A stretch of DNA of 64,000 nt from a virus. The notes beneath the pieces are model-generated. The model saw nothing but the letters and a program-made list of their open reading frames with translations, was not told where the DNA came from and searched no databases. The stretch is taken from IMG/VR virus record IMGVR_UViG_3300044712_000557, positions 29,163-93,162 of that record; one strand, given 5' to 3'. Position numbers and translations under genes: made by a program. Every line of letters begins with the position of its first letter. Within the stretch, counting starts at the first letter, position 1. Of the stretch, positions 5,455 through 43,308 are shown one piece after another.

Positions 5455-5528
5455 GCGGCAGTGGTGTAGCGATAGCACGCGATTCTGCCAAGTTCGCAGT
5501 GCGGGTTTAACTCCCGCCTGCCGCTCCA
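5455..5528 (+). tRNA. tRNA-Gly(GCC)
   Basis: GCGGCAG/CTGCCGC-T-CCA; loop CTGCCAA. Confidence 0.85.
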
Positions 5529-5537
5529 AATTCGTAT

Positions 5538-5628
5538 GGGGGGTTAGCCTCAATCTGGTAAGGCACCCGGCTGTAACCCGGCGGTTGGTCACCATGCCAT
5601 CGTGGTTCAAATCCACGACTCCCCACCA
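5538..5628 (+). tRNA. tRNA-Tyr(GTA)
   Basis: CCGG-CTGTAAC-CCGG; long V arm; CCA. Confidence 0.9.
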
Positions 5629-5634
5629 TTCAGC

Positions 5635-5708
5635 GCGTCCTTGGTGTAGCACTAACACGCTATCCTTCCAAGTTAGAGTCGAGGGTGGGACTCCCTCAGG
5701 ACGCTCCA
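5635..5708 (+). tRNA. tRNA-Gly(TCC)
   Basis: GCGTCCT/AGGACGC-T-CCA; loop CTTCCAA; atypical T loop. Confidence 0.8.
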
Positions 5709-5778
5709 TCACAGCTAGGGCAAGAACGCGCCTAGCTAGCCGTGCCCCCGTGGTCCAGACTGGCCAGGGGGTTCGTTC

Positions 5779-5852
5779 GCCGCCCTAGTTCAATAGCAGA
5801 ATGGATCCTTGGTAAGGATCTGACATCGGAGCGTAACCGATGGGCGGCTCCA
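5779..5852 (+). tRNA. tRNA-Thr(GGT)
   Basis: GATCC-TTGGTAA-GGATC; GCCGCCC/GGGCGGC-T-CCA. Confidence 0.88.
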
Positions 5853-5853
5853 T

Positions 5854-5928
5854 CCCTCACAGGTGTTATGGCAGCATTCCAGGCTCTTAACCTGCGCGGT
5901 CAGAGTTCAAATCTCTGGTGGGGGACCA
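5854..5928 (+). tRNA. tRNA-Lys(CTT)
   Basis: CAGG-CTCTTAA-CCTG; T arm; CCA. Confidence 0.88.
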
Positions 5929-5933
5929 AATTC

Positions 5934-6011
5934 GCGAGTGTGACGGTAACTGGCAAACCTAGCAGGTCGAGAGCCTGCTGTTTGTGGGTTCAACTCCCAC
6001 CGCTCGCACCA
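5934..6011 (+). tRNA. tRNA-Leu(GAG), short variable loop
   Basis: GCAGG-TCGAGAG-CCTGC; A73; CCA. Confidence 0.85.
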
Positions 6012-6012
6012 T

Positions 6013-6088
6013 GCCAGCGTACTCCAACAGCAGAGAGACGCGACTCAGACTCGCGACAGTGGTGGTGCGAATCCACTCGCTGGCACCA
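6013..6088 (+). tRNA. tRNA-Leu(CAG), short variable loop
   Basis: CGCGA-CTCAGAC-TCGCG. Confidence 0.88.
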
Positions 6089-6089
6089 T

Positions 6090-6165
6090 GGCGCACTATC
6101 CCAACGGCAGAGGAACGGGTCTTAGAAGCCCGCAAGTCTGGGTTCAAATCCCAGGTGCGCCACCA
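6090..6165 (+). tRNA. tRNA-Leu(TAG), short variable loop
   Basis: CGGGT-CTTAGAA-GCCCG. Confidence 0.9.
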
Positions 6166-6258
6166 ACCTGACGTGCTTTGCGCCTATGACTCGTGATCCT
6201 TGAGGGGAGGGACACGACGAGGATGCGCTCCTTAAGCAAGAGTGAAACATTCCCTCAT

Positions 6259-6334
6259 CGGCACGTAGCCCAACGGCAGAGGCAGCAGCCTTAAAACCTG
6301 CTCAGTGAGAGTTCGAATCTCTCGGTGCCGACCA
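6259..6334 (+). tRNA. tRNA-Leu(TAA), short variable loop
   Basis: GCAGC-CTTAAAA-CCTGC. Confidence 0.85.
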
Positions 6335-6335
6335 T

Positions 6336-6413
6336 CGCCGACTGATGTAACTTGGCAAACATCCTCGTCTCAAAAACGAGGTCTTCTGGGTTCAACTCCC
6401 AGGTCGGCGACCA
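6336..6413 (+). tRNA. tRNA-Leu(CAA), short variable loop
   Basis: CTCGT-CTCAAAA-ACGAG. Confidence 0.9.
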
Positions 6414-6430
6414 TCTTGATTCTTCATGAA

Positions 6431-6509
6431 GGGGTACGAGAGAGCTTGGCGTTCTCTCTGCGTTGTCAGCGCAGGTAATCGGTGGGTTCAAATCCCACGT
6501 ACCCCGCCA
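6431..6509 (+). tRNA. tRNA-Asp(GTC)
   Basis: CTGCG-TTGTCAG-CGCAG; G73; CCA. Confidence 0.9.
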
Positions 6510-6525
6510 TGAGTAATCAAGAAGC

Positions 6526-6598
6526 AGGGGCAGGAGTGGGTTCGAATCCCACCATGAATGCGGGAGCGTTCGTGTGGTGTATAGGAAGCACGTCCCCT
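6526..6598 (+). ncRNA. circularly permuted tRNA-like module 1 (YrlA-like topology)
   Basis: T arm GTGGG-TTCGAAT-CCCAC, then acceptor hairpin CATGAATGC-GGGA-GCGTTCGTG, then D arm GTGT-ATAGGAA-GCAC; closed by AGGGG/CCCCT. Confidence 0.75.
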
Positions 6599-6609
6599 TA
6601 AAAGCATAA

Positions 6610-6726
6610 GCGGGTGGAGCGGTTCGACTCCGCACTGTCGCAGTGTCCTAGGAATCACACAGAGTGGTCATGCCCACGCGAAAGGCGCTCTGACGTGACA
6701 GCTTAGTGTAACGGTAGCACACCCGC
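6610..6726 (+). ncRNA. circularly permuted tRNA-like module 2
   Basis: GCGGGT/ACCCGC closing stem; T arm GCGG-TTCGACT-CCGC; CTGTCGC/GTGACAG acceptor enclosing a 53-nt insert; D arm GTGT-AACGGTA-GCAC. Confidence 0.75.
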
Positions 6727-6878
6727 ACATACCAAAGCACACACGAATGATCTTCCGATGCGTGCGCTCTACGGCTCTGCAGGGCCGGCGATACGAAGAT
6801 CATATTAGCCCCGTGGTACGAGCGCTGTGGAGCGCCTGTGGCCACAGCAGCGCAAACGGCCACGGGGTATTACAATTC

Positions 6879-6952
6879 GGGCGACGAGTAGGACGGGAAT
6901 ACGGCTGGTTTGCACCCAGCAAGACAGGGTTCGACTCCCTGGTTGTCCACCA
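6879..6952 (+). tRNA. tRNA-Ala(TGC)
   Basis: GCTGG-TTTGCAC-CCAGC; G3:U70. Confidence 0.9.
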
Positions 6953-7125
6953 AATACTGCCAGCGGTGATGCTGGTTGTGGGGATGCCGGCTATCCCACG
7001 GCGACTTCTTTGCGTGAGTGGAGCAATAGTAGTCGCAGATTAGTCCGGCCAGCGTGAAACGCAAGGTCACTCCTTAGTGACAGGGGGATCCGGCAATGCC
7101 TGAGGCATCCAGTACTCCCCCATTT

Positions 7126-7202
7126 GGCCTCGTCTTCTAACTGGTCGAGGATACTGCCCTCTCAAGGCGGCGATACCGGTTCGATCCCGGTCGAGGCTAC
7201 CA
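7126..7202 (+). tRNA. tRNA-Glu(CTC)
   Basis: CTGCC-CTCTCAA-GGCGG. Confidence 0.9.
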
Positions 7203-7217
7203 TCCGATAGGAGACGA

Positions 7218-7568
7218 ATGTCGTACGATCATAAGTTGTACATGAGAGAGTGGTACAAGAAGAACAAGAAGAAGCACGTTGGGTACGTTTCTTCTTCCAA
7301 GTCTTCTGTATGCCTCTACATCGACAACGCAAAGAGGTGCCCATGTTCCGACTGCGGGAAGACTTACCCCACTTATGTGATGCAGTTTGATCACGTCCGT
7401 GGTCGTAAGTTGGTAGCTCTCTCAAGAGCTGCCCAAAGCGGGCTTGGGATGCAAAGAGTCAAAGACGAGATAGCAAAATGCGAGGTTGTGTGCGCGAATT
7501 GCCACGCCGAGCGAACTCATCAAAGGTTGTTGTTGCGGGGTAGGGCAGTCCCTACACAAGTCTCATAA
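7218..7568 (+). CDS. HNH endonuclease (free-standing, in tRNA array)
   Basis: CSDCG..FDHVRG..KCEVVCANCH; AGGAG RBS. Confidence 0.88.
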   Translation: MSYDHKLYMREWYKKNKKKHVGYVSSSKSSVCLYIDNAKRCPCSDCGKTYPTYVMQFDHVRGRKLVALSRAAQSGLGMQRVKDEIAKCEVVCANCHAERTHQRLLLRGRAVPTQVS

Positions 7569-7606
7569 ACTTGATGGCGAGCGTGCAACTCGCTCCTCCG
7601 CTCCCA
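7534..7606 (+). tRNA. tRNA-Met(CAT), initiator-like acceptor stem
   Basis: TGCGGGG/CTCCGCT with 1:72 mismatch; CAAGT-CTCATAA-ACTTG; CCA. Confidence 0.72.
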
Positions 7607-7607
7607 T

Positions 7608-7682
7608 GGTTCTCTAGTGAAATGGCCATCACGACAGGCTTACACCCTGTTATTCAGAGTTCGAATCTCTGGGGAACCACCA
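7608..7682 (+). tRNA. tRNA-Val(TAC)
   Basis: ACAGG-CTTACAC-CCTGT. Confidence 0.9.
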
Positions 7683-7683
7683 T

Positions 7684-7757
7684 GGCAGTCCAAGATGGAG
7701 TTTCAGGCGCGCTCATAACGCGTATCTGGGCAGGTTCGAATCCTGCGGCTGCCACCA
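7684..7757 (+). tRNA. tRNA-Met(CAT), elongator (Ile2 not excluded)
   Basis: GCGCG-CTCATAA-CGCGT; GGCAGTC/GGCTGCC. Confidence 0.85.
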
Positions 7758-7840
7758 TCTACGGTTAGAAGTAGGCCCACTCAAATGAGAGCGACCCAGC
7801 GGAATTGCTAACCGCTCATCGGTTGCGTGTGGGTCTACTT

Positions 7841-7916
7841 GTGGCCGTAGTGTTAACGGTAAGCACGGGGAGTTGTGGCCTCCCTAGTCGCAGTTCAAAT
7901 CTGCGCGGTCACCCCA
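7841..7916 (+). tRNA. tRNA-His(GTG)
   Basis: GGGAG-TTGTGGC-CTCCC; C73; no encoded G-1. Confidence 0.9.
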
Positions 7917-7929
7917 ATTGAGGAGAGAG

Positions 7930-8217
7930 ATGCCAAGCAGGGGAGCGAAGCGTACTGGGCAGTTCAAGGCGAGGTATAAGCTACGCTACGAATTGATCAA
8001 CAGGCTAAAGGACAAGCCATGCGCTGAGTGTGGAAGTACGTTCCCGACATACGTGATGGAGTTTGATCATGTACGTGGCGAGAAGAAGTGCAACGTGCCA
8101 AAGTTGTGGCATTGCAGCGAGGCGGTCTTTCTAGAGGAAGTATCGAAGTGCGACGTGGTGTGTTCCAATTGCCACAAGATTCGCACGAGGACAAGAGTTC
8201 ACGGGGATGTAGGGTAG
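7930..8217 (+). CDS. HNH endonuclease (paralog of 7218-7568)
   Basis: PCAECG..FDHVRG..KCDVVCSNCH; GAGGAG RBS before ATG 7930. Confidence 0.88.
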   Translation: MPSRGAKRTGQFKARYKLRYELINRLKDKPCAECGSTFPTYVMEFDHVRGEKKCNVPKLWHCSEAVFLEEVSKCDVVCSNCHKIRTRTRVHGDVG

Positions 8218-8278
8218 TGGATTGCCCGCGTGGTTTGGGACCACGAAAGCGCAGGTTCGAGTCCTGTCATCCCCACCA
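8203..8278 (+). tRNA. tRNA-Pro(TGG)
   Basis: CGTGG-TTTGGGA-CCACG. Confidence 0.88.
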
Positions 8279-8344
8279 TTCGGGCGAGTAGCTGCGCCCT
8301 GCGAAGATTGACGCAGAACCTACGACGTAGGGGCTACACAGAAC

Positions 8345-8423
8345 GGGGATATAGAGAAGCCTGCATTTTCTCACTCGCTTCGGAGGCGAACAAGCGCTGG
8401 TTGAAATCCAGCTATCCCCACCA
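8345..8423 (+). tRNA. tRNA-Pro(CGG)
   Basis: TCGC-TTCGGAG-GCGA; GGGGATA/TATCCCC-A-CCA. Confidence 0.8.
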
Positions 8424-8650
8424 TCTCATGAGGCGGCTCGCCCAAGGAGCCGTACGCCCGATGCGAGTGAGCAGAAGGCTGAAGGTGCGACGGCATCGCT
8501 TGGGCACAGAATGTAGCGCGGGCAGTAAGCTAGACCATGGGGACGCTAAGCGCCCCTGGGTCAAGTGCTCCTCAATCCTTCCTGGCCTACGTGCTCACAC
8601 ACGTAGTGGATCGGAGCCTGGGCTGCCCCCACTTGAATTCATAGACTTAT

Positions 8651-8726
8651 TGGGGCTTAGCATAATGGCAGTGCGGTAGGCTCTGACCCTACGCCAATAG
8701 AGGTTCGACTCCTCTAGCCCCAGCCA
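8651..8726 (+). tRNA. tRNA-Gln(CTG)
   Basis: GTAGG-CTCTGAC-CCTAC; U1:A72; G73. Confidence 0.9.
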
Positions 8727-8734
8727 ACTTCCGT

Positions 8735-8811
8735 TCCTCAGTGGTGTAACTGGTAAGACCCCCGACTGTTAATCGGTGAGATTGTAGGTTCGAATCCTAC
8801 CTGAGGAGCCA
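8735..8811 (+). tRNA. tRNA-Asn(GTT)
   Basis: CCGA-CTGTTAA-TCGG. Confidence 0.9.
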
Positions 8812-8812
8812 T

Positions 8813-8887
8813 CCCTCGCAAGTGTTACGGCAGCATAGCGGGCTTTTAACCCGACAGGTCAGAGTTCGAATCTCTGGCGAGGGACCA
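8813..8887 (+). tRNA. tRNA-Lys(TTT)
   Basis: CGGG-CTTTTAA-CCCG; similar to Lys(CTT). Confidence 0.9.
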
Positions 8888-8894
8888 TTTCTAC

Positions 8895-8968
8895 GGGCTC
8901 TTAGTGAAACAGCATAACGCCTGCCTGATTAGCGGGAGTTCGCGGTGCGAATCCGTGAGAGCCTACCA
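8895..8968 (+). tRNA. tRNA-Ile(GAT)
   Basis: CCTGC-CTGATTA-GCGGG. Confidence 0.85.
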
Positions 8969-8974
8969 CTTCGT

Positions 8975-9050
8975 GCCGGTAAGGTGTCGAAGGAGACGCG
9001 CTCGCCTCGTAAGCGAGAGATGGCGGGTTCGATCCCCGTAACCGGCTCCA
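8975..9050 (+). tRNA. tRNA-Thr(CGT)
   Basis: CTCGC-CTCGTAA-GCGAG. Confidence 0.88.
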
Positions 9051-9054
9051 TCTC

Positions 9055-9206
9055 GGTGAGGGGCTGTGTTCGGCGTCTCGACAGTAAGAGACATGTGGTG
9101 CGGACACACCTGAGTTGCCCAGAGCGGATAAACACCGCCATGTATGGTAGCTTGGCACAGCGTAAAACGAAGGCGTCACTGCACGCCAACCTCACCTTTT
9201 CTTTTT
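9055..9206 (+). ncRNA. structured ncRNA of unknown family, followed by a U-tract
   Basis: GGTGAGG/CCTCACC and GCTGTGTT/GGCACAGC long-range stems, internal hairpins, then TTTTCTTTTT. Confidence 0.5.
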
Positions 9207-9238
9207 CGAGTCACGATCCGCAGACTCAAAGACCTTAA

Positions 9239-9314
9239 GCCGACTTAGCAATGACAGTTCATGCGCCCGCCTGAAGAGCGGGATATGTTGGGGCGGCACC
9301 AACAGTCGGCACCA
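9239..9314 (+). tRNA. tRNA-Phe(GAA)
   Basis: CCCGC-CTGAAGA-GCGGG; atypical T loop GGCGGCA. Confidence 0.85.
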
Positions 9315-9320
9315 TTCTAC

Positions 9321-9668
9321 GGGCCTTGGCCCAGCATATTCTGGGATGATCGATCTCAACGCAGATACCTCTCGGTGACAATTCTGCGGGTCCACCAGTT
9401 CGCCATGTGGGATCGCGAAAGGGTGGCGGAAAACCCGGAACCGCCAGCAAGAGTAACCTTAGGCGCGTGAAAGCTTCATGCTCGATATGGATGGCTGGGG
9501 CCAATGATAGGTTGCGACGACGGCTTACTTCTAGTGCCCCACATGGCACATCTCTATGGGACAGAAGACTCGCTGTTGTGTTCGTAAGCGTCAAGGATGG
9601 TACCGTCCTGAGCTACTACGGCACGATGGAGATCAGAAGACATCGTGGGGTAGGACCACACTGTCCCT
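9321..9668 (+). ncRNA. ~350 nt structured ncRNA of unknown family
   Basis: GCCATGTGGG/CCCACATGGC and GGGACAG/CTGTCCC multibranch domains; no convincing ORF. Confidence 0.5.
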
Positions 9669-9675
9669 CAATTCT

Positions 9676-9747
9676 TGCCGGTCGAGCTAGGCTCAGAGCG
9701 GTCCTGTAAACCGCCCTTGCTCGGTGCGATACCGAGGACCGGCTCCA
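9676..9747 (+). tRNA. tRNA-Thr(TGT)
   Basis: GCGGT-CCTGTAA-ACCGC; minimal D arm. Confidence 0.8.
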
Positions 9748-9751
9748 CTTC

Positions 9752-9826
9752 GGGGTCATACGCCAACGGCTAAGCGGACTGCCTTTCAAGCAGTTGATGA
9801 GGGTTCAATTCCCTCTGACCCTACCA
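9752..9826 (+). tRNA. tRNA-Glu(TTC)
   Basis: ACTGC-CTTTCAA-GCAGT. Confidence 0.9.
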
Positions 9827-9831
9827 TCTAT

Positions 9832-9902
9832 GCCGGGAAGAGCAACGCTGGACGGCACGGCTACCGCAATGGTCGGCTGCATAGGATCCAGCCCCGGCAC
9901 CA
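9832..9902 (+). ncRNA. aberrant tRNA-like RNA with CCA end, identity unclear
   Basis: GCCGGG/CCCGGC-A-CCA plus three non-canonical arms. Confidence 0.55.
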
Positions 9903-9907
9903 TCTGT

Positions 9908-9984
9908 CCTCCCGTAGCCCTAAGGATAGGGCACCAGCCCCCGAAGCTGGAGCTTAGTGGGTTCGATTCCCACCGGGAGTACCA
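9908..9984 (+). tRNA. tRNA-Arg(CCG)
   Basis: CCAGC-CCCCGAA-GCTGG. Confidence 0.85.
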
Positions 9985-10050
9985 TCCAAAGGAGTCGCAA
10001 TGAGCAACGGAGGAACGTCATGCTTATGTAGCTAAGGAGGCTACCCAAGC

Positions 10051-10221
10051 ATGGCTGCTTCGAACGATCGTTCCGCGAAGGACAAGCAGATGGCTGCGCG
10101 TCTGAAGGCTGAAGGTGATGACCGGCACATCGGCCGCTGCTGCATCTGCTACCGTATCATCTCCAACGGCGCTGCGTGCGAGAACCACTACGGTGCTCAC
10201 GCGCGTGGTGCTAGCGACTAA
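10051..10221 (+). CDS. 56-aa Zn-finger-like small protein (not in the ORF track)
   Basis: AAGGAGG RBS; MAASNDRSAKDKQMAARLKAEGDDRHIGRCCICYRIISNGAACENHYGAH... Confidence 0.7.
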   Translation: MAASNDRSAKDKQMAARLKAEGDDRHIGRCCICYRIISNGAACENHYGAHARGASD

Positions 10222-10277
10222 GCAGTATAGCTGCGGGCGACAGCTAAGTGGGGCTCATGCCGCCACATCGCCCTCAT

Positions 10278-10354
10278 GGCCCATTCGTTCAACTGGATGA
10301 GGATACCGGGCTACGAACCCGGAGATTGCAGTTCGAATCTGCAGTGGGCCACCA
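10278..10354 (+). tRNA. tRNA-Arg(ACG)
   Basis: CCGGG-CTACGAA-CCCGG. Confidence 0.92.
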
Positions 10355-10358
10355 TCTT

Positions 10359-10433
10359 GGCGCTATAGCTCAACGGACAGAGCGCGAGTTTCCTAAACTC
10401 AAGGTCCGAGTTCGACTCTCGGTAGCGCCTCCA
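10359..10433 (+). tRNA. tRNA-Arg(CCT)
   Basis: GAGT-TTCCTAA-ACTC. Confidence 0.9.
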
Positions 10434-10445
10434 ACCTAGGAGCAT

Positions 10446-10631
10446 ATGGAACACCCAAGTGGATTCCCAATGAGTTCTTCGTTCTCCGTTGCTGTCAGAG
10501 TGCAAGATGACAATGGAGTCACCATCAAGCAAGAGCAGTTCTCGCTGACTGGCTACTTCAAGGACTCCTCCGAGATGTTAGCTAAAGCAGTCGAGTGGAC
10601 GGACAAACAGAAGAGAGAAGCTAGAGAGTAA
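10446..10631 (+). CDS. hypothetical protein
   Basis: AGGAG RBS; coupled to the next ORF. Confidence 0.6.
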   Translation: MEHPSGFPMSSSFSVAVRVQDDNGVTIKQEQFSLTGYFKDSSEMLAKAVEWTDKQKREARE

Positions 10632-11176
10632 TGGACTCAGAGACAAAGGCCGGGTTGAGCGTGATCCTTGGAACCTTCCTCGCAGTCATCCTGCTGTCGT
10701 GGGTGGTCCAGGGAAACGACTGCTGGATGTTCAAGATCTTCGCACCGAAGTACGAGCAGCAGGAGATTCTTCTAAAGGAGGCAGCCGCCCAGACCGGGAT
10801 GCCTGCTATTGCAAACTTCCGAGAGCGCAAGCTTCTCAAGGACATCATCGAGCTTCGTGACCAGAACGGGCTCGTGACCTATACGTACGTTTGGAACGAG
10901 TTCAATGGAAAGATGGTATTCTTCTGCGATAGCATCGGGTATGGAATCCCGTACGCTACGCAGTACACTTCCCCGGAGAAGATGGTCGGATACAACAGTG
11001 CGCCGGCCGTGGTTCCCCAGGCAGATCCCAACGGGCTCTTCTCCCCGGCATCAGCCGAGGGCACCTGGGTCATGTGTAAGAACCCCAACGGAAAGGAAGT
11101 GCGCCCTGTTTACGTAGAACCGCGCATCATCGTCTCCCCGTTCCCACTGACGAAACAGCCAGCGGAGCAGAACTAG
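10631..11176 (+). CDS. membrane-anchored phage protein
   Basis: N-terminal TM helix; SIGYGIPYATQYTSP..QADPNGLF..EGTWVMC..YVEP motif. Confidence 0.75.
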   Translation: MDSETKAGLSVILGTFLAVILLSWVVQGNDCWMFKIFAPKYEQQEILLKEAAAQTGMPAIANFRERKLLKDIIELRDQNGLVTYTYVWNEFNGKMVFFCDSIGYGIPYATQYTSPEKMVGYNSAPAVVPQADPNGLFSPASAEGTWVMCKNPNGKEVRPVYVEPRIIVSPFPLTKQPAEQN

Positions 11177-11260
11177 AATCAACAGGGTCTGTTGATTCAC
11201 AGCGAGTGTCGAGAAATCAACCGGTCGTGCGCTGTGACCGTACTCGCGACAGCGCGCCAT

Positions 11261-11338
11261 GGCCCCTTGGTGTAACCCGGACAAGCATACTTGGCTTCTA
11301 ACCTTGAGGCGACAGTTCGAATCTGTCAGGGGCCTCCA
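11261..11338 (+). tRNA. tRNA-Arg(TCT)
   Basis: loop CTTCTAA; GGCCCCT/AGGGGCC. Confidence 0.85.
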
Positions 11339-11344
11339 TCTTTC

Positions 11345-11438
11345 AGTGGCGTAGTGTATGGCAGCACGGGGGGACTTATAAACCCTATAGCGCCAGATTA
11401 GCGCACCGGATTGGGTTCGATTCCCAACGCCACTACCA
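11345..11438 (+). tRNA. tRNA-Ile(TAT) with long variable arm
   Basis: loop CTTATAA; V arm GCGC-CAGATTA-GCGC. Confidence 0.8.
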
Positions 11439-11439
11439 T

Positions 11440-11530
11440 GGAAGGGATGATCGAGTTGGCAGATCACCTACCTGCTAAGTAGGACAGCCCTCATAAGGCT
11501 GCGAGAGTTCGATTCTCTCCCCTTCCGCCA
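11440..11530 (+). tRNA. tRNA-Ser(GCT)
   Basis: CCTAC-CTGCTAA-GTAGG; V arm; G73. Confidence 0.9.
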
Positions 11531-11543
11531 CCTTAGTGAGACT

Positions 11544-11906
11544 ATGGAAAAACCAAGGCGTCTTCTGTTTTCGGTCACGGCGAAGGACTTAGATATCCAG
11601 ACCTTCTGTACGGGTGGCAATGGAGGCCAGCACAGGAACGCCAAGCAGAATGGCGTACGACTCATCCATCGGGCCTCAGGAGCCCGCGCAGAGCATCGGG
11701 ACGGACGGGACCAGGGGAAGAACCGCAGGGAGGCCTTCCTGAAGCTCCTAGAGACTCCAGAGTGGAAGGCGTGGTCGAAGATGGAAGTCTCCAGAAGGCT
11801 AGGACTGATCACTGCGGCTGAGAATGCTGTAGAGGAAGCCATGGCAGCTCCCAACCTACGTATCGAGGTTAAGGGAGACGACGGCACATGGCACGAGATT
11901 GAATAA
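11544..11906 (+). CDS. peptide chain release factor domain (GGQ) peptidyl-tRNA hydrolase, ArfB/PrfH-like
   Basis: GGNGGQHRNAKQNGVRLIHRASG..RDQGKNRREAF. Confidence 0.88.
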   Translation: MEKPRRLLFSVTAKDLDIQTFCTGGNGGQHRNAKQNGVRLIHRASGARAEHRDGRDQGKNRREAFLKLLETPEWKAWSKMEVSRRLGLITAAENAVEEAMAAPNLRIEVKGDDGTWHEIE

Positions 11907-11907
11907 C

Positions 11908-11981
11908 GGTAGGCATGCTTAGGGACATAGCCGAGATTCGAACCTTTGGCTAGCTGGGTTCGAATCCCAGGCCTACCGCCA
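11908..11981 (+). tRNA. atypical tRNA, anticodon CGA (Ser), extended anticodon stem, no V arm
   Basis: GGTAGGC/GCCTACC-G-CCA; AGCCGAG(A)-TTCGAAC-(C)TTTGGCT; canonical T arm. Confidence 0.7.
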
Positions 11982-11996
11982 TCTTAAGGAGAAACG

Positions 11997-12212
11997 ATGT
12001 GTTGCTGTAGATGTAGCCGTGCGCACGACGAGGCTATTGCCGACATGGTTCTGGCGGAAGCTATCCTGACGGAGCATGCCTTTCGGGCTATGCACCCAAA
12101 CCTCCACCCAGCCGTTGAGGAAAGGATGATTAGGCTGGGCAGCCTTATCTCTCCTGGCCTCAATGAGTCGATGCTGGCCTATCTTACCAAGCTGTGGAGA
12201 CTAGCTAAGTGA
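11997..12212 (+). CDS. hypothetical protein
   Basis: AAGGAG RBS. Confidence 0.6.
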   Translation: MCCCRCSRAHDEAIADMVLAEAILTEHAFRAMHPNLHPAVEERMIRLGSLISPGLNESMLAYLTKLWRLAK

Positions 12213-12493
12213 AAGACTTCCTAGGAAAAGAGATCACGGTCGGATGCCTGATCGCGTATCCGGCGCGCATGAGTTCTTCAGTCTGGATGAACGTCGCGCG
12301 AGTCGTTGGATTTAGCACACGCAAGGATACCTGGGCTAGGAAGAACGTTCCATCTCTCAAGCTGAAGCGCGTGTCTAGCACAGACAGCTACTTCAAGCCT
12401 GGGACCACCACAGAGATCTACGCCCTCGACAACGTACTCGTGCTTGAGGAGGCAGATGTCCCGAAGCAAGAAGAGGCCGTACACCAAGAGTAA
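12209..12493 (+). CDS. hypothetical protein (SH3/KOW-like)
   Basis: MKDFLGKEITVG..IAY pattern common in phage proteins. Confidence 0.6.
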   Translation: MKDFLGKEITVGCLIAYPARMSSSVWMNVARVVGFSTRKDTWARKNVPSLKLKRVSSTDSYFKPGTTTEIYALDNVLVLEEADVPKQEEAVHQE

Positions 12494-12704
12494 GCGCTTC
12501 GACGCGACATGTCGTAGCCATGGCGGTTGCCCGTACTGCCAGGGGAATCGAAAGCATTCGACCAATCGTAGGAGCTATCCATTGCGGGCAGAGGTAGCCG
12601 AAGGCGTTTGGTCATTTGAGGAGTGGCAAGCTAGTGAAGAAGGGTGCAACCGAGATTGTTGTCGTACTCGACCGTTCGGGGTCGATGCAGAGCACGAAGA
12701 CTGA
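12456..12704 (+). CDS. small basic Cys/His phage protein
   Basis: GGAGG RBS; SKRFDATCRSHGGCPYCQGNR. Confidence 0.55.
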   Translation: MSRSKKRPYTKSKRFDATCRSHGGCPYCQGNRKHSTNRRSYPLRAEVAEGVWSFEEWQASEEGCNRDCCRTRPFGVDAEHED

Positions 12705-13335
12705 CGCAGAGGGCGGCCTGAAGGCATTCGTGGAGAAGCAGCGAGAACTTCCCGGCGAGTGCGTGCTGACCCTGTATCGATTTGACGATACGATCGAGCG
12801 CGTCTTTGAGGAGAAGCCTCTGGTACGAGTCGAGCCATACGACCTCCAGTTGGTCCCTAGGGGTTCTACGGCCCTCCTAGACGCCATGGATCGAGCCATC
12901 GATGAGGTGGGATCGCGTCTCGCTCGTCGTGCCGACTATGATCGTCCAGAGTTCATCTACTTCGTGACGATCACAGATGGCTACGAGAACGCCTCCAGGA
13001 AGGCCTCTCCCGCCAGCGTCTTCGATAAGGTTACGCATCAGCGTGACAAGTACGGCTGGCAGTTCGTCTTCATCGGTGCCAACCAGGACGCTATCGCCAC
13101 GGCTTCGAAGCTGGGTATCGGGGCGCAGTACTCCCTTACATATCGTGATAGCTCCATGGGTACCAAGAGTGCTTACAACAGCATGAGCGACGGCATCCTG
13201 CGTTCTCGCCAGCTTGGCGGGCAGGCTGTGTGCTTTACCGCTCAGGAGCGCACGGAGGCCATGGCCAGCGATGACGACATCAAGGCTCTTAAGACGACCT
13301 TCGGAACATCGAGTGTGACAACTCCAAGAAAGTAA
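12634..13335 (+). CDS. von Willebrand factor A (vWA) domain protein
   Basis: MIDAS VLDRSGSM, GSTALLDA, ITDGYENAS, FVFIGANQDA. Confidence 0.9.
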   Translation: MKKGATEIVVVLDRSGSMQSTKTDAEGGLKAFVEKQRELPGECVLTLYRFDDTIERVFEEKPLVRVEPYDLQLVPRGSTALLDAMDRAIDEVGSRLARRADYDRPEFIYFVTITDGYENASRKASPASVFDKVTHQRDKYGWQFVFIGANQDAIATASKLGIGAQYSLTYRDSSMGTKSAYNSMSDGILRSRQLGGQAVCFTAQERTEAMASDDDIKALKTTFGTSSVTTPRK

Positions 13336-13336
13336 C

Positions 13337-13858
13337 GTGATGGCCTCAAAATGGAAGACTCTCAGCGGGGAGAACATCGCTGACATCGTGCAGTTCCTGA
13401 AGGACTCTAACCGCCATGGTCAGATCCTTCACGTTGGTACAGACTCGCTGCAGACTGGAAGGTACACGCAGTTTGTGACTGTCGTGGTCCTGCTGAACCC
13501 CAGGCGTGATGGGGTGGGATCTGGCGGCAGGGTCTTTTATCAGAGAGACATCGTTCCCCGCATCAACTCACTACGCGAGCGGCTTACTAAGGAAGTTTGG
13601 AAGTCGCTCGACCTTGCCATGCAACTGCCTGAGTTTGACTTGACTGTGCATATCGATGCCAACCCATCGGAGAAGCATATGTCCAGCAAGTACCTGCAGG
13701 AGCTGGTTGGGATGGTCGTAGGGCAAGGGTTCAAGGCGCTGTGGAAGCCAGATAGCTGGGCCGCAACGCATGCCGCCGACCACGTCGTACGAATCAAAGG
13801 GAGACTGCCGAGCACTGGTGCTCAACTGGGCTTGAACCCCAGGGTAGCCACTGGCTAG
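13337..13858 (+). CDS. RNase H-like YkuK (DUF458) family protein
   Basis: VGTDS..FVTVVV..RERL..EV..S..VHIDAN..KPDSWAATHAADH. Confidence 0.85.
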   Translation: MMASKWKTLSGENIADIVQFLKDSNRHGQILHVGTDSLQTGRYTQFVTVVVLLNPRRDGVGSGGRVFYQRDIVPRINSLRERLTKEVWKSLDLAMQLPEFDLTVHIDANPSEKHMSSKYLQELVGMVVGQGFKALWKPDSWAATHAADHVVRIKGRLPSTGAQLGLNPRVATG

Positions 13859-13884
13859 GGGTTCGATCCCTCCAGTCTCCGCCA
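13800..13884 (+). tRNA. tRNA-Ser(TGA), 8/4 fold
   Basis: GGAGACTG/CAGTCTCC-G-CCA; CTGGG-CTTGAAC-CCCAG; V arm TAGCC/GGCTA; 4-bp T stem. Confidence 0.85.
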
Positions 13885-14031
13885 CTCTAAGAGCGCCACA
13901 AACTATCTGGTTCCAATGGGGTCTACGTTGTGGCCCGGCGCTGAACCCTGCAATCCCCTCTAAGCGGGGAATAATGTCCGCATCCCCCTGGGAAGCTTAG
14001 CTCTGCAGGGGGCTTTCCTTACTGAGGCGTA

Positions 14032-14460
14032 ATGCTTGTTGGAATAGTCGGCGTCGAAGCAGCAAAGCTGGACGCCCCAACCAAAGAGAGAGCGCTGATC
14101 AGGCTAGAGCAGATCATCTCTAGCCCACATACATCTCTCGTCGTGAGCGGGCATTGCCATCTAGGGGGGATTGACATACTCGCCGAGGAGACAGCAGCAA
14201 GGCTAGGCAAGCCTTTCCTGATCTTCCCTCCCAAGAACTTGCAGTGGTCCACTGGCTACATGCCTCGCAATCTACAGATCGTCAAGTTCAGCGATGTCGT
14301 CATCTGCCTAACGGTCAAGGAGCTTCCTGAAGGCTACGACGGGATGCGCTTCGACCTCTGCTACCATTGCGGGACTAAGGAGCATATCAAGAGCGGGGGA
14401 TGCTGGACCGTCAAGCAGGCAATCAAGGCAGGAAAGAAGGGACGCGTAGAGGTCATATGA
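14032..14460 (+). CDS. SLOG/DprA-like (YspA-type) protein
   Basis: VGIVG..VVSG..GGIDILAE..RNLQIV..SGG.WTV..A..GK. Confidence 0.7.
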   Translation: MLVGIVGVEAAKLDAPTKERALIRLEQIISSPHTSLVVSGHCHLGGIDILAEETAARLGKPFLIFPPKNLQWSTGYMPRNLQIVKFSDVVICLTVKELPEGYDGMRFDLCYHCGTKEHIKSGGCWTVKQAIKAGKKGRVEVI

Positions 14461-14780
14461 GCGATGACTTGGATTACGAACAGTTAGACCCTGGGATCAT
14501 AGGACTCGTAGCTCTCCTGCGCGCCCATGGGTTCGAAACGACTGACTCTGGCGATGGAGTGAGCAAGAAGGCCAAGGGGATCGATGATGCATTGCCCTAC
14601 CCTCACGTCTTCTGCGTGGTCGACCCAGATAGACTCGTCATCGAGGCTAAGAGAGCTTGGCACACGTTGAACGTCTATCCAGAGTACGAAGATCTCTCTA
14701 TCGAGGCTAGCTACAGCCCCGATGACAACGCTGCGATTCTTGCCATCTATGGCAACGTCGTCTCTGGTGGGAGCTTGTAG
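14457..14780 (+). CDS. hypothetical protein
   Basis: LDPGI..LV..L...GFETTDSGDG motif; ATGA coupling to upstream gene. Confidence 0.65.
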   Translation: MSDDLDYEQLDPGIIGLVALLRAHGFETTDSGDGVSKKAKGIDDALPYPHVFCVVDPDRLVIEAKRAWHTLNVYPEYEDLSIEASYSPDDNAAILAIYGNVVSGGSL

Positions 14781-14837
14781 GACAGAGGCGGGCTTGGAAA
14801 GCTCGCCGTTCGGGTTCGACTCCCGATCCCACCGCCA
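14766..14837 (+). tRNA. atypical tRNA, anticodon GGA (Ser), 7-bp anticodon stem, no V arm
   Basis: GGTGGGA/TCCCACC-G-CCA; GGCGGGC-TTGGAAA-GCTCGCC; TCGGG-TTCGACT-CCCGA. Confidence 0.75.
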
Positions 14838-14904
14838 CTCTCGTGGCCATGATAGTTATCGTGGCCATGTTCGAAGTTACTGAACGATCCGCGAAGTTGA
14901 ACAT

Positions 14905-14981
14905 GTGGATGTCGCCAAGAGGCTCAAGGCGCTAGGCTGCAACCCTAGTATTCGGTGGTTCAAATCCACTCATCCACTCCA
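14905..14981 (+). tRNA. tRNA-Cys(GCA)
   Basis: CTAGG-CTGCAAC-CCTAG; U73. Confidence 0.92.
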
Positions 14982-14982
14982 C

Positions 14983-15057
14983 AGGGCCTTGGCCGAGAGG
15001 ACTAGGCAGCGGGCTTTGACCCCGCTAAGACAGGTTCGATTCCTGTAGGCCCTGCCA
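14983..15057 (+). tRNA. tRNA-Gln(TTG)
   Basis: GCGGG-CTTTGAC-CCCGC. Confidence 0.9.
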
Positions 15058-23900: not shown

Positions 23901-25483
23901 CTTGCGTTGATCTGCTTCCAGTTCGCAGGGTCTAGGCTGTCGCGCCCCTGAAACAGCTCTGCGTCGGTAGCCATCCCCGGTCGTCCACTTTCCGGCGGGA
24001 GATAGCCCTCATTGACTGGAGCTTTACTCCCACTTACGGCTCTGGCTAGCTTGGCCCCTAGTCTTTCTCCAGCCGCACCCATGCGCTTTCGAATTGCATA
24101 TCCTAGCGCTAGTCCCATGTATGGGCTACCCGTCAGTGCGGTTCCGGTCGCAGCTCCCCCAGCATAGCCCGCCACCTCGCCGGCCATCTTTCCAGCCTTA
24201 GGCAGGAAGGACGAGGCTTCCGATGTGGCCTGCGCAGATACAGGCTTTTCACCAACCGTCTCTACCCTCATCCCCGTTAGATTTGGATCCGGCGTACCTT
24301 CTGTGGCTACTGGCTTGTTGGACTTGTAAGCCTCTAGGGCCTTCGATACTACGTCCTTTGCACCATTAACTACGTCGCCCTGTGGCCCTACTCCCTCAGC
24401 TAGATGCTTACCAGAGTGAAGGGCGAAATATGCATCGGTGCCGGACCCCACGATGGCAGGCAGCGCCTTCTTCAGGTCGCCCTCAGCCAATGCCTCGCCA
24501 GCCTGTCCTCCCTGCTCGGCAGCTCCCATTGCCATAGTTGGAGTGAAGTAGCCAGAGATCGCCTTATTGGCAGCAGAAGCCGTCTTACCCGATGCTACGC
24601 GACCCTTTAGAAATGCTTTTGTCCTAGGATCAGCGGCAGAGAAAATCTCAGACAGAGGGCCGGCAGTAGAGGCTTCAGTCTTCTTGATTCCCTCTAGAGT
24701 CTTGGCAGCATTTGCTCCCCTAGCCGCCTCAGCACCAGAGAATCCCATAGCCAACATCGTGGGATCTCCACCGGCCATGGCTACGCCAAGATCAAAAGGC
24801 TTAGACGCAGCCTGCTCAAAAGAATTCATCCATGGATTCTGCTCGGCGATAGACTCCTGCACCTCAGTAGGAGATCCAGCCTCTGACTGAGGATCGAGGG
24901 CATGCACGTTTAGCCCGATGGAAGCGCGCAATCCACGGTTGACAGCCTCTGGGAGGCTCTTCGGAGCATCAGTCCTAGCCCATTCGTTCAAGCGAGTTTG
25001 AGCGCCACCACGACCAAGCTGATAGATAGGACTACCGTTGGGATCAAGACGAGTTCCAGTAACGGCCTCCATGAGGCCTCGGCGTTCTCCAGCCACCGGC
25101 TTGATATTTCTCCCGCCGGTCTGAATGGAATCGAGCACCCTGCCAAGTACGTCCGCAGGGATACCCATCGTGTCGCCTACAGCTCCGACTGTGGTGCCAG
25201 ACGCAGCCCTTACCGCATCGAGAGTTGGACTACCAGTTGATGGAGCAGGCTCAGATGTACTAGGAGCGTTCAGCCACGGAGAATTCTTGACCCCAGACGC
25301 AGCATCTCCAAGTTGGGCCATCATTCTCGTCCCAAGGCCAACTTCAGACTTTTGCTTCATGGCGTCTTGGAATTTGGCCATGGCGATCGGCTGAGTCTGA
25401 ATGGACTTCTCTAGGTCATCATCGTCCCAAGAATCAAACTCGCCTGGGAATACTTCCCTGATCTGCTTTGCTAGGATGCCCAT
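17909..25483 (-). CDS. large polyvalent ejection/internal virion protein with zincin-like motif and C-terminal SAM methyltransferase
   Basis: 2524 aa, last of the ejection series; HEFGH; CGPCYVESRR; FDWGSGKGAD..GYDP..TFVGNVI. Confidence 0.75.
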   Translation of the reverse strand: MGILAKQIREVFPGEFDSWDDDDLEKSIQTQPIAMAKFQDAMKQKSEVGLGTRMMAQLGDAASGVKNSPWLNAPSTSEPAPSTGSPTLDAVRAASGTTVGAVGDTMGIPADVLGRVLDSIQTGGRNIKPVAGERRGLMEAVTGTRLDPNGSPIYQLGRGGAQTRLNEWARTDAPKSLPEAVNRGLRASIGLNVHALDPQSEAGSPTEVQESIAEQNPWMNSFEQAASKPFDLGVAMAGGDPTMLAMGFSGAEAARGANAAKTLEGIKKTEASTAGPLSEIFSAADPRTKAFLKGRVASGKTASAANKAISGYFTPTMAMGAAEQGGQAGEALAEGDLKKALPAIVGSGTDAYFALHSGKHLAEGVGPQGDVVNGAKDVVSKALEAYKSNKPVATEGTPDPNLTGMRVETVGEKPVSAQATSEASSFLPKAGKMAGEVAGYAGGAATGTALTGSPYMGLALGYAIRKRMGAAGERLGAKLARAVSGSKAPVNEGYLPPESGRPGMATDAELFQGRDSLDPANWKQINASPDVGFIVEQLAATQGVDPKSITGAMAGSPEQLLAARAGLDPFAGRPATEFDQAAMEAPLNEGLAATQQADQAPPPSAVETLKQRKAQIAEQKAQAELDLLDKYEQNPGLEKMVKAYAKAYGMDPSEALEPAMKAYETQMAKARQREDLGIADNIANAEAAKGIKWGEPLQAPYSEPPIQLTPEQQSQLMAPDPWQSKTERGGLGGFTPEEQAQLLGMLAPEVRGESPRVVPGAPERNAAEVAAADPFQQTPHTPLADVTKTMKEAGVPEPEVSKGEQRAKDLGIGRNEQDFHPEYDRTVEEWRTGKLTQRKKNKDTGVVEDVPIPQDEAGSKIMRAIARDRAVKAIVAERENAKQNATAGAIAGSGMSTSPQAAMDALVAESQGNAGAIRARLIKRHVDQATFEPLLQDSLKRYREQKGKALVEPKAEQPTGPTGIEGKFAETQSKGLDALDLPALARLRDQLEAAAKTEEHPVDAANLQADIKAVDAVIERKASEPPAPDPPPAPPEAPAPAPTKKSKRVNVKKILADEGQRKDMMSSTIQATQAREGIETTREQAEAAYDKVRAEKTGKKTPKKAPVEAQAAPEATPVAEVAPETAPEAKTAPRTARTPEQVDQIKALVNKRDFAAAAKLARETAPNPDAKDIHGNRIGYVHPDGSMITSIDSDGTPSRVRPSVKKEFVEGGGKQYSLAEDYQKTKEKPELRMPPKVEGPFRAEPATKVMGGIKQALRKAGDTAKSYLVDSDKLPYLPGGFGVEEGNLGKSKLHGPDGESVSVRLRKGKVEMWHLDKGEGENSAAMIQAVREFAEANGADKIIFPSSNKVGVSEGIVTKAAIAMRDRLAARGEGRWLENGQFELNVKEHALSDLVESRRPLVTPTQIIRSLPDNFKKSAYVDETDGSLVIETPGGNIRIIPKDRIEVDPSTLAGEYSPGAIEGVRAGKMVAEGLKTVLDKEAIIEVVRKGSIPHEFGHVFLDHFATPKERAVLQKKYGPIAEAANRGVDEVISDAYREYFNRRQANPQWQPQGVIGKYFKKVSDFFTTALRAVHPDPESIFESMSTGKAFEREASNAGMKAKGYEAYGIEPKASVGPKPLRSSTGSMLERAGNIAQPRSGQKGLLETQKTDLKPRMGKQSPADEPLFNAGSKGEGVVQKNGVVMTRGAVAPAKYSTRTVNETMYAARKANKKVKAFTEKQMQSFEADLRSVAAAVNADPDRLDFVALNGATGIKKNGDPRYPVSEDYTTMCRRRYKLSDTVDAIQKARGKMLEADDILKIRRMLEDKGHEVNCGPCYVESRRIKMDTAINKAIEGYEIKTGKGKGQIAQLTAENAKLALTQEGRNKMFVDDPEQYAVLSAAFAGLNAKVPIGRAEYKGEYLSMKQSQIDKMNRYSGARSNSWSDFEVPHLLDKMQAVMDKALRGLKGQAYTKEIEYVESMKDTNEMINCSVIPEGDGFNPDGSLRFNKRESIRNMKRAYELRDKYDNVGVEAIGISDKHIKALLASKDIDYVIPYHDSGLSREHQLVNRMENWKDYSEEQNWRSAKTGEKVGLDPEKVAFDQFSEQHLPKIDAKTMAAKIAEGTAKGAKNPQAYAESRLLKEAWDKLDAKDRQERIDTAPVEIFIDEWQGDLKKLDALCKQRGVKPPFERMRNWPGYEKLLTDRRIWDKNGKFIKQQKIQFKFDMPYINKMMAEYKGGHDSNQADKNVVRDFMAGNAPEAAPDKSPFSEDTLTQMRKAAAKSLGVAEPDKKTIPLRKAPSQASLSELPKQYGRPVPYSKEWNPRKYTEEQVVANAGRTAMARSGSSSHAKAIGEAIKGKTVFDWGSGKGADLKHYEEAGAANVKGYDPTHSPTKPEGMADIVTNTFVGNVIPPNMRHSMWIEAMGRAKDKMYVAVRAEKNMGGEPIFDGVLMGPPPKDGAKDTRTFQKFYQPGELVDELKALFPGHTVEPGVKTGLSSVSTAVVSRNRPSYPNRPRGAFETQSKYYSRTALGKPKGSGSGPKAK

Positions 25484-42611: not shown

Positions 42612-42823
42612 TAGCGGGCCTCACTCTGCTGCTTTTCCACCGCATGCTTCATCTCGATATCCTTCAAGCGCTGGTCGAGCGCACGGATATCGGACTCTTG
42701 CCTAGCATTGATGTCCAGCACTACAAGCTGCCGAGCGCCCAAAAAGGCAACTGCGGCCGACAGGAATGCGATGAAGAACCAGATGACTGCGTCAGATGAG
42801 ACTTTTCTATCATTGCCGTTCAT
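42611..42823 (-). CDS. small membrane protein
   Basis: One TM helix; GGAGG RBS. Confidence 0.6.
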   Translation of the reverse strand: MNGNDRKVSSDAVIWFFIAFLSAAVAFLGARQLVVLDINARQESDIRALDQRLKDIEMKHAVEKQQSEAR

Positions 42824-42846
42824 GTCGGCCTCCAGAACTAAGGGTA

Positions 42847-43308
42847 CTATGGCTTAATCTGCTTGGCCGGATCTACTAGGACACTATCCTTCGGCAAGGA
42901 TAGGCGACCCATCTCGGCCTTTAGGTAGCCCTCGGTGGAGAGCAGCCCAGACATCGAAGACCCCGCCATGCGCTGCTGCTGAGCCTTGATGAGCTTGCCA
43001 ACCAATCCCAAAATGGCAACAGCACCAAGGACAGCCTTGGTCATAGCCTCGCCGGTCCACTCCCCCGGAGGAAGCCAGCCGATGGTGGTAAGCACGGACG
43101 CCAGAAACTGACCGGTGTGCCCATTGTGATAGGCATCGTAAACGCCACACGAGAAGATACCAAGGACGGCGATAACAAGCTTCCAGCCATCCAGAGCCCT
43201 CAAAACCTTACCCATACCACTCTCACTTTTCTTGCCCCGGAGATCTTCTACTTTGCCACGCAGCCATCGGAGCGCTAGCGCGCGGACAACCTTATCCTTG
43301 AGCCCCAT
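42847..43308 (-). CDS. putative holin
   Basis: 2-3 hydrophobic segments near the endolysin. Confidence 0.5.
   Translation of the reverse strand: MGLKDKVVRALALRWLRGKVEDLRGKKSESGMGKVLRALDGWKLVIAVLGIFSCGVYDAYHNGHTGQFLASVLTTIGWLPPGEWTGEAMTKAVLGAVAILGLVGKLIKAQQQRMAGSSMSGLLSTEGYLKAEMGRLSLPKDSVLVDPAKQIKP

Follow-up and report, generated by a model that had tools for sequence, protein, structure and literature searches.

The tRNA array described here lies in the virus record IMGVR_UViG_3300044712_000557, of which bases 29163-93162 were analysed (64,000 nucleotides (nt), hereafter the window). The record is 93,162 bp long, has direct terminal repeats and is rated complete, and it belongs to a soil phage of about 93 kb that is kin of phages of Tunturiibacter (Acidobacteriota). 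No near-identical record came up when the array was searched by megablast among 50,697 phage records. Four open reading frames (ORFs) within the array end inside the tRNA that follows them, and a fifth gene encodes a small, stand-alone protein with the GGQ domain of release factors. The features at these junctions, in window coordinates, are as follows.

5455..15057, + strand: array of tRNA genes and tRNA-like elements, about 37 in all, with small ORFs between them.
7218..7568, + strand: HNH1, a homing-endonuclease-type gene (phrog_3106, 5.1e-22); 35-nt overlap with the next tRNA.
7534..7606, + strand: tRNA-Met(CAT)-like element, found by ARAGORN at relaxed thresholds and missed by default ARAGORN and Rfam.
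7918..8217, + strand: HNH2 (phrog_3106, 5.7e-21); probable start ATG 7931 behind GAGGAG; predicted C-terminus ...VHGDVG.
8203..8278, + strand: tRNA-Pro(TGG) (ARAGORN; Rfam 63.8 bits), which supplies the HNH2 stop.
11544..11906, + strand: stand-alone GGQ protein of 120 amino acids (PF00472, 2.1e-11; phrog_3122, 1.1e-20), with its own TAA.
11908..11981, + strand: tRNA-like element with anticodon CGA (relaxed ARAGORN, Ser-CGA); no variable arm, weak anticodon stem.
13337..13858, + strand: YkuK-type RNase H-like gene (PF04308, 4.9e-27, residues 14-150).
13800..13884, + strand: tRNA-Ser(TGA) (ARAGORN), overlapped over 59 nt; the junction is conserved in the relatives L008, L010 and G001.
14032..14460, + strand: gene of 142 amino acids and unknown family, ATGA-coupled to the next ORF.
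14457..14780, + strand: ORF of 107 amino acids; its start shares ATGA with the end of the upstream gene, and its last 15 nt lie in the tRNA at 14766-14837.
14766..14837, + strand: 72-nt tRNA with anticodon GGA (ARAGORN; Rfam 28.8 bits); no long variable arm in its predicted fold.

A preliminary description of this DNA had placed the stop codons of all four ORFs inside tRNAs and had proposed that the output of these genes depends on the GGQ protein. The anatomy on which it built was confirmed throughout. For each ORF the first in-frame stop lies inside the next tRNA: HNH1 stops at TAA 7566-7568, in the anticodon loop (CAT) of the tRNA-Met-like element; HNH2 at TAG 8215-8217, which forms positions 13-15 of tRNA-Pro; the YkuK-type gene 59 nt into tRNA-Ser(TGA); and ORF 14457 at TAG 14778-14780, positions 13-15 of the tRNA at 14766. 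The GGQ gene retains a TAA (11904-11906), and the tRNA-like element begins 1 nt further on. Profile matches upheld the family calls of two HNH genes (phrog_3106), a YkuK/RNase H-like gene (PF04308) and a GGQ protein (PF00472, phrog_3122). By family match three of the four overlapping ORFs are real genes; for the fourth, ORF 14457, no relatives were found in viral contigs or in three profile libraries. Both HNH1 and HNH2 match an HNH-core profile (phrog_3106/2255) and neither has a Pfam match above cut-off. The PF04308 match of the YkuK-type gene, a putative nuclease, scores 95.1 bits (cut-off 25) and spans profile positions 3-143 of 145. Two of the tRNA elements, those at 7534 and 11908, are aberrant, with scores under the standard thresholds. 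Among the eight gene-to-tRNA junctions of the array, four overlap, one lies at +1 nt and three have gaps of 42, 56 and 84 nt; adjacent genes of the window overlap by 1-4 nt too.

We compared the window with 29 loci, namely 27 viral contigs with a homologue of the GGQ gene and two Tunturi records, and determined for each tRNA how far its 5' end lies from the stop of the closest credible ORF upstream. About 27 junctions fell at 0 to +12 nt and about 22 were overlaps of 3-114 nt, with a minority beyond 30 nt. In the phages of these loci a gene as a rule abuts or enters the tRNA that follows it. The 316 distinct tRNAs of the GGQ loci carry a stop triplet at positions 8-10 in 39% of cases and at positions 13-15 in 22%, against 3.5% of all triplets in the window, and these frequencies account for recurrent overlaps of 10 and 15 nt. 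In random phases, between a third and a half of reading frames would cross a whole tRNA without meeting a stop.

The junctions of the HNH family depart from this expectation. In the GGQ loci, eight of ten family members have a downstream tRNA, and all eight end inside it. A wider search collected 80 distinct relatives from IMG/VR, on diverse viral contigs, of which 35 lie within 150 nt upstream of a tRNA on the same strand. Counting from the end of the domain alignment gave 38 distinct HNH-to-tRNA junctions. Eighteen have their own stop, in ten cases just 2-10 nt before the tRNA, and in the remaining 20 the stop lies inside the tRNA, always within its first 35 nt; read-through of a whole tRNA was found in none of the 38. 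Thirteen of the 20 overlapping ORFs enter in phase 0, with a codon starting at tRNA position 1 (binomial p = 0.004), and a stop triplet at positions 13-15 is present in 11 of the 20 overlapped tRNAs compared with 75 of 353 other tRNAs (Fisher p = 0.0015). The tail past the HNH core is about equally long with or without a tRNA downstream. The genes span the full spacer between tRNAs and have their own Shine-Dalgarno sequences. HNH1 is missing at the orthologous position of L008, where the tRNA that it enters is the same, so HNH1 is an insertion relative to L008. That the stops come early and favour positions 13-15 suggests that they are used, since stops always lost to processing would be free to lie anywhere; in the HNH family, in-tRNA stops thus appear to be working terminators, read on unprocessed transcripts.

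The YkuK-type gene behaves differently at its end. Its domain is complete by residue 150, the tRNA starts at codon 155 and the last 19 codons are tRNA sequence, so that the natural end of the gene falls no more than two codons from where the tRNA begins. Orthologues enter the same tRNA-Ser(TGA) in four phages, with stops 59 nt (window), 95 nt (L008), 53 nt (L010) and 62 nt (G001, also sampled as L042/L043) into the tRNA; because these offsets differ, the stop itself is not conserved. In L009 the gene has its own TAA with zero gap to a tRNA-Cys, and in L047 its own stop lies 150 nt ahead of the next tRNA. The 17-31 residues encoded by the tRNA are probably a junk tail that the protein tolerates.

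The GGQ protein corresponds to domain 3 of release factors. It matches PF00472 at 44.2 bits (cut-off 35), with GGQ at residues 27-29, and phrog_3122 over residues 5-118 (profile positions 21-129 of 136). An AlphaFold2 model (pLDDT, the predicted local distance difference test, 91) matched the folds of RF1, RF2, mtRF1, PrfH and mtRF-R, with neither ArfB nor ICT1 among the matches listed; the matches to mtRF-R and PrfH (7a5h_C, Z 6.4; 7sa4_8, Z 6.4) are in the common-fold range. The matches cover just release-factor residues of about 210-290, and the codon-recognition domains 2 and 4 (PxT/SPF) are missing. At E <= 0.01 the only NCBIfam models matched were those of RF1, RF2 and PrfH, and a sequence search of the PDB likewise gave RF1, RF2 and PrfH, with no ArfB or ICT1 among the matches listed. 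The protein ends straight after its last beta-strand, and its last 30 residues carry a net charge of -6; in 34 homologues this charge has a median of -2.5 and a range of -7 to +1, which means that the basic tail of ArfB and ICT1 is missing across the family. A caveat of the preliminary description, that the protein lacks this tail, therefore extends to the whole family.

We found 471 homologues of about 100-135 amino acids, with the GGQ region nearly invariant. The identity of the protein is 60% to the 'RF-1 domain' protein of phage Tunturi 4, 57% to that of Tunturi 3, and 35-43% to the 'RF-1 peptide chain release factor' found in about 200 mycobacteriophages. Two relatives (L033 2181-2511 and L034 1674-2067) have the gene split into two overlapping frames just past the GGQ region, which could reflect a frameshifted pseudogene, a sequencing error or a prfB-like programmed shift. 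Like ArfB (YaeJ) and mitochondrial ICT1, the phage protein is small, has a GGQ domain and is without stop-codon recognition domains; unlike them, it has no basic C-terminal tail. In ArfB and ICT1 a basic C-terminal linker and helix enters the empty mRNA channel; the chemistry expected of the phage protein, as of these two, is peptidyl-tRNA hydrolysis in the peptidyl-transferase centre. The GGQ rescue factors mtRF-R (C12orf65) and PrfH act on split large subunits or damaged ribosomes, and not via a tail in the mRNA channel; mtRF-R works with MTRES1, and PrfH with RtcB2. Unlike these, the phage gene has no conserved partner adjoining it, no conserved protein-coding neighbour being found in 23 loci. 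Most likely the phage protein belongs to a general translation-support kit, made up of tRNAs and in relatives also tmRNA, and would hydrolyse peptidyl-tRNA on stalled ribosomes or on large subunits. Two side observations concern its surroundings: three phages (the window, L020 7406-7852 and L027 5483-5863) have the gene of 142 amino acids, at 14032-14460 in the window, no more than about 2 kb from the GGQ gene, and in the actinophage EniyanLRS a gene annotated as DprA-like lies near the RF-1 gene.

The distribution of the GGQ gene does not follow that of the overlaps. It lies within large arrays in the window and in L008-L013 (26-38 tRNAs in 8-12 kb). Eleven GGQ loci have no tRNA in the fetched flanks (up to 6 kb per side), however, and the GGQ-bearing contigs G004-G008 have only 1-7 tRNAs; Tunturi 3 and 4 have three and one tRNAs, respectively (PMC11924767). 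Conversely G001, a complete genome of 92,489 bp with direct terminal repeats and an array of 32 tRNAs, shows the YkuK/tRNA overlap and three more overlaps yet has neither an RF-1 gene nor a gene for transfer-messenger RNA (tmRNA). The block 11544-13335 of the window, which comprises the GGQ gene, the tRNA-like element, two small ORFs and a VWA-like gene (phrog_7371), is missing from the syntenic array of G001 (L049, reverse strand), where tRNA-Ile(TAT) is directly followed by the YkuK-type gene; the block thus behaves as an insertion or deletion cassette. EniyanLRS has an array, HNH genes, tmRNA and RF-1, and no credible ORF/tRNA overlap was found in its array. The GGQ gene is thus probably an accessory gene in its own right, mobile and of the phage RF-1-domain family, with no specific link to the overlaps.

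No tmRNA was found in the whole 93-kb genome with RF00023, RF04321 or ARAGORN, which gave just sub-threshold tRNA matches. Relatives do carry it (L006, L011, G002, G004, G005 and G012), in two forms.

L006 (Tunturi 4, PP885687.1) 8344-8753: circularly permuted tmRNA.
L011/L012 4783-5034: circularly permuted tmRNA.
G004 75898-76185: circularly permuted tmRNA.
G005 99491-99778: circularly permuted tmRNA.
L047 639-1015 (G002 42623-42999): one-piece standard tmRNA, 121 bits, in or near the array.
G012 24045-24476: one-piece standard tmRNA, 72 bits, in or near the array.

The permuted (two-piece) form scores 79-89 bits with RF04321, has the G3:U70 alanine identity pair and encodes tags ending in AVAA or PVAA; the tag of the L047 tmRNA is AESESLPLAA. 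Permuted tmRNA adjoins the GGQ gene in Tunturi 4 and in L011/L012, starting about 4 nt past the RF-1-domain gene in Tunturi 4. Neither the GenBank record nor the paper on the Tunturi phages (PMC11924767) mentions a tmRNA; a marine methylophage is reported to carry a two-piece tmRNA (PMC9004378). Of the complete genomes in which an HNH gene overlaps a tRNA, G012 encodes tmRNA, G018 gives a weak tmRNA-like match, and RF-1-domain genes are present in G019 and G021. The expectation that overlaps co-occur with GGQ genes holds at a coarser level only: rescue genes (RF-1 domain or tmRNA) are frequent in tRNA-rich phages with such overlaps, whereas G001, EniyanLRS and the GGQ phages with 1-7 tRNAs point against a specific link to the GGQ gene.

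We consider it the best explanation, with a probability of roughly 0.6, that the overlaps reflect compaction together with insertion of HNH genes beside tRNAs, and not a circuit built around the GGQ protein. Compaction had been raised as a caveat in the preliminary description, and the packing across the 29 loci, the arrangement in G001 and the positions of the HNH stops make it the better-supported account. On this account the array is extremely compact and has been colonised by HNH genes that settle immediately upstream of tRNAs. As a tRNA needs neither a ribosome-binding site nor a spacer ahead of it, gene ends are squeezed against its 5' end. In a gene that lacks its own stop, translation would continue to the first in-frame stop in the tRNA, and conserved stop-like triplets of the 5' half (U8-A9-G10, N13-A14-R15 and the anticodon loop) would usually limit the extension to a few residues. 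HNH stops would be read on transcripts not yet processed, and the YkuK-type protein would tolerate its tail. If the ORFs are co-transcribed with the tRNAs, cleavage by ribonuclease P (RNase P) would remove their stops, and it is plausible that it yields nonstop messages; such stop-less copies would make up some of the transcripts and be cleared by host rescue, as a side effect and not a designed switch.

Several results weigh against this account. Phylogenetically, the HNH junctions are only partly independent of one another. When 21 overlaps from several gene families were pooled, no phase bias appeared (7 of 21 in the shortest phase), and 15 of the stops in this set lay within 40 nt where 12.7 were expected, which is about random, so that selection on stop position is shown for the HNH family only. 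The stop-less state of the YkuK-type gene in four lineages also fits a model in which stops are dispensable. Finally, rescue genes are common in the complete genomes with HNH/tRNA overlaps, and there may be some functional link between arrays and rescue.

A second explanation, which we regard as unlikely, invokes mutual exclusion without the GGQ protein: a translating ribosome would unfold the 5' half of the tRNA and delay its processing, a processed transcript would become a stop-less message, and host rescue would clean up. It is likewise unlikely, in our view, that potentially toxic homing endonucleases would be kept low in this way, with ORF and tRNA output as alternatives. An either/or model of this type has been proposed for selB/tRNA-Sec (PMC8124441), and the confinement of HNH stops to the tRNA 5' half, their phase 0 in many unrelated phages, and HNH genes that fill the inter-tRNA spacer behind their own Shine-Dalgarno sequences are all compatible with it. 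About half of the tRNA-adjacent HNH genes, however, stop 2-10 nt ahead of the tRNA or otherwise have a stop of their own, and overlap is therefore not required.

The model of the preliminary description is quite unlikely. In it, the array is transcribed as long precursors that RNase P cuts at every tRNA 5' end before ribosomes finish, which turns all four ORFs into nonstop mRNAs; host tmRNA would have the products tagged and destroyed, the GGQ protein would release them untagged, and the balance would set nuclease output. The absence of own stops from four ORFs agrees with it, as do the unconserved stop positions of the YkuK-type gene in four lineages, the location of the GGQ gene inside arrays (window, L008-L013) or beside permuted tmRNA (Tunturi 4, L011), and the presence of tmRNA or RF-1 genes in most complete genomes with HNH/tRNA overlaps. 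Terminator-like sites do not stand out in the array; a scan for promoters and terminators was uninformative, with fewer sites than in shuffled controls. Earlier proposals for selB/tRNA-Sec (PMC8124441) and for smpB/ssrA in Carsonella (PMC4131195) follow the same reasoning. Coupling to the phage GGQ factor is nevertheless unsupported, because G001 retains overlaps with neither the GGQ gene nor tmRNA, GGQ homologues occur in phages with as few as zero or one tRNA, and the EniyanLRS array, with both tmRNA and RF-1, shows no overlaps. In addition, the early and position-biased HNH stops point to reading by ribosomes, and the protein, apparently nearer by profile to RF1, RF2 and PrfH than to ArfB, is without the basic tail that ArfB and ICT1 need for the empty mRNA channel.

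There are long odds against a mitochondria-like mode of expression, in which RNase P cuts would set the mRNA 3' ends, messages could mostly do without stops, and products would be released by a tail-less release-factor domain or, in relatives, tagged through a phage tmRNA; if true, it would be a virus-encoded, stop-independent termination system that sets the dose of homing nucleases. That the overlapping ORFs are decaying or unexpressed remnants and their overlaps inconsequential is hardly credible, for although no relatives of ORF 14457 were found and the tRNAs concerned include two aberrant ones, the ORFs of the HNH and YkuK-type genes are intact, with strong profile matches and 60-75% identity in relatives.

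The array belongs to a known type. Array units of mycobacteria and their phages contain HNH, RF-1-domain, Pth and tmRNA genes alongside tRNA arrays (Morgado and Vicente 2018, PMC5966550). Like these units (cluster M/C/Wildcat-type), which are dense, with 20-40 tRNAs and embedded HNH and RF-1-domain genes, the window has at least 20 clustered tRNAs with both kinds of gene. Unlike mycobacteriophage units, it comes from a soil lineage of Acidobacteriota type, is packed much more tightly and frequently shares stops between ORF and tRNA; some units of the mycobacteriophage type have tmRNA, whereas the genome of the window has none, and EniyanLRS has no credible overlaps. The window mainly extends the known combination of array, HNH genes and rescue genes to soil phages of Acidobacteriota type.

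Mobile nuclease genes between tRNA genes are also familiar. T4 SegB is a free-standing homing endonuclease in a phage tRNA region, and we know of no description of stop sharing with a downstream tRNA for free-standing homing endonucleases of such regions. HNH-driven change of the tRNA repertoire has been described for cluster M phages (Pope 2014, as cited in PMC5966550). HNH1 and HNH2 resemble SegB and the cluster M genes in their placement. What is new here is the junction architecture, in which genes are pressed on tRNA 5' ends and a widespread HNH family ends at conserved tRNA nucleotides. As in alphaproteobacterial selB/tRNA-Sec, for which tRNA maturation has been proposed to create a nonstop mRNA (PMC8124441), in smpB/ssrA of Carsonella, a proposed overlap case of the nonstop kind (PMC4131195), and in mitochondrial tRNA punctuation, the ORF stop lies inside or beyond a downstream tRNA-type gene, and processing would remove it. 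Those precedents are single, lineage-specific cases, whereas here the arrangement recurs in phage arrays and across one HNH family, and the in-tRNA stops are apparently used. In all of these cases, the window included, the nonstop outcome is a proposal. Annotation pipelines that forbid overlap between coding sequences and tRNAs will truncate or miss such genes. The junctions also offer natural test cases for translation against RNase P processing on one transcript, and for the role of a tail-less GGQ protein in infected cells.

Default ARAGORN finds 34 tRNAs in the array, and relaxed thresholds add the two aberrant elements (7534-7606 and 11908-11981). Two further features of the array are as follows.

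9908-9981, + strand: tRNA-Arg(CCG) (Rfam 47.9 bits), with C instead of U at position 33; missed by ARAGORN.
10631..11176, + strand: gene of 181 amino acids (phrog_24725), with its own stop 84 nt before tRNA-Arg.

At the position of L008 that matches 10631..11176, an ORF also of 181 amino acids ends 15 nt into tRNA-Arg(CCT); tblastn gave no match between the two at E 1e-5, and kinship is not established. ORFs 5585-5788, 5742-6125 and 8230-8679, which also end in tRNAs, were judged spurious because each crosses an upstream tRNA, and so was ORF 10115-10300, which competes with a conserved gene of 56 amino acids at 10051-10221.

The aberrant tRNAs have counterparts in relatives. The element at 7534-7606 is predicted to fold with a 1:72 mismatch of the initiator kind and with an unusual D arm and T loop; its orthologue in L008 (4156-4225) reaches 38.1 bits with the Rfam tRNA model and shares the odd T loop and the mismatch. 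This odd tRNA-Met(CAT) is conserved in the window, L008 and the G001 array, with 1:72 unpaired, a 6-bp D stem and a GTGCAAC T loop. The element at 11908-11978 scores 24.2 bits in Rfam (cut-off 29). We rejected it as a relic of the tRNA-like domain of a tmRNA, because its 3:70 pair is U-A and not G-U and its acceptor strands are contiguous. A long variable arm is the usual serine identity element; the tRNAs with serine anticodons at 11908-11981 (CGA) and 14766-14837 (GGA) are 71-74 nt long, have no such arm and score at or below the Rfam cut-off. Arrays of relatives (L013 6738-6813 and 6933-7030; L015/L018 8304-8378; L007 2975-3049) contain tRNAs with CUA anticodons and with four-base anticodons (TAAA, GAAA); those with CUA are of the amber-suppressor type and are labelled 'Pyl' by ARAGORN.

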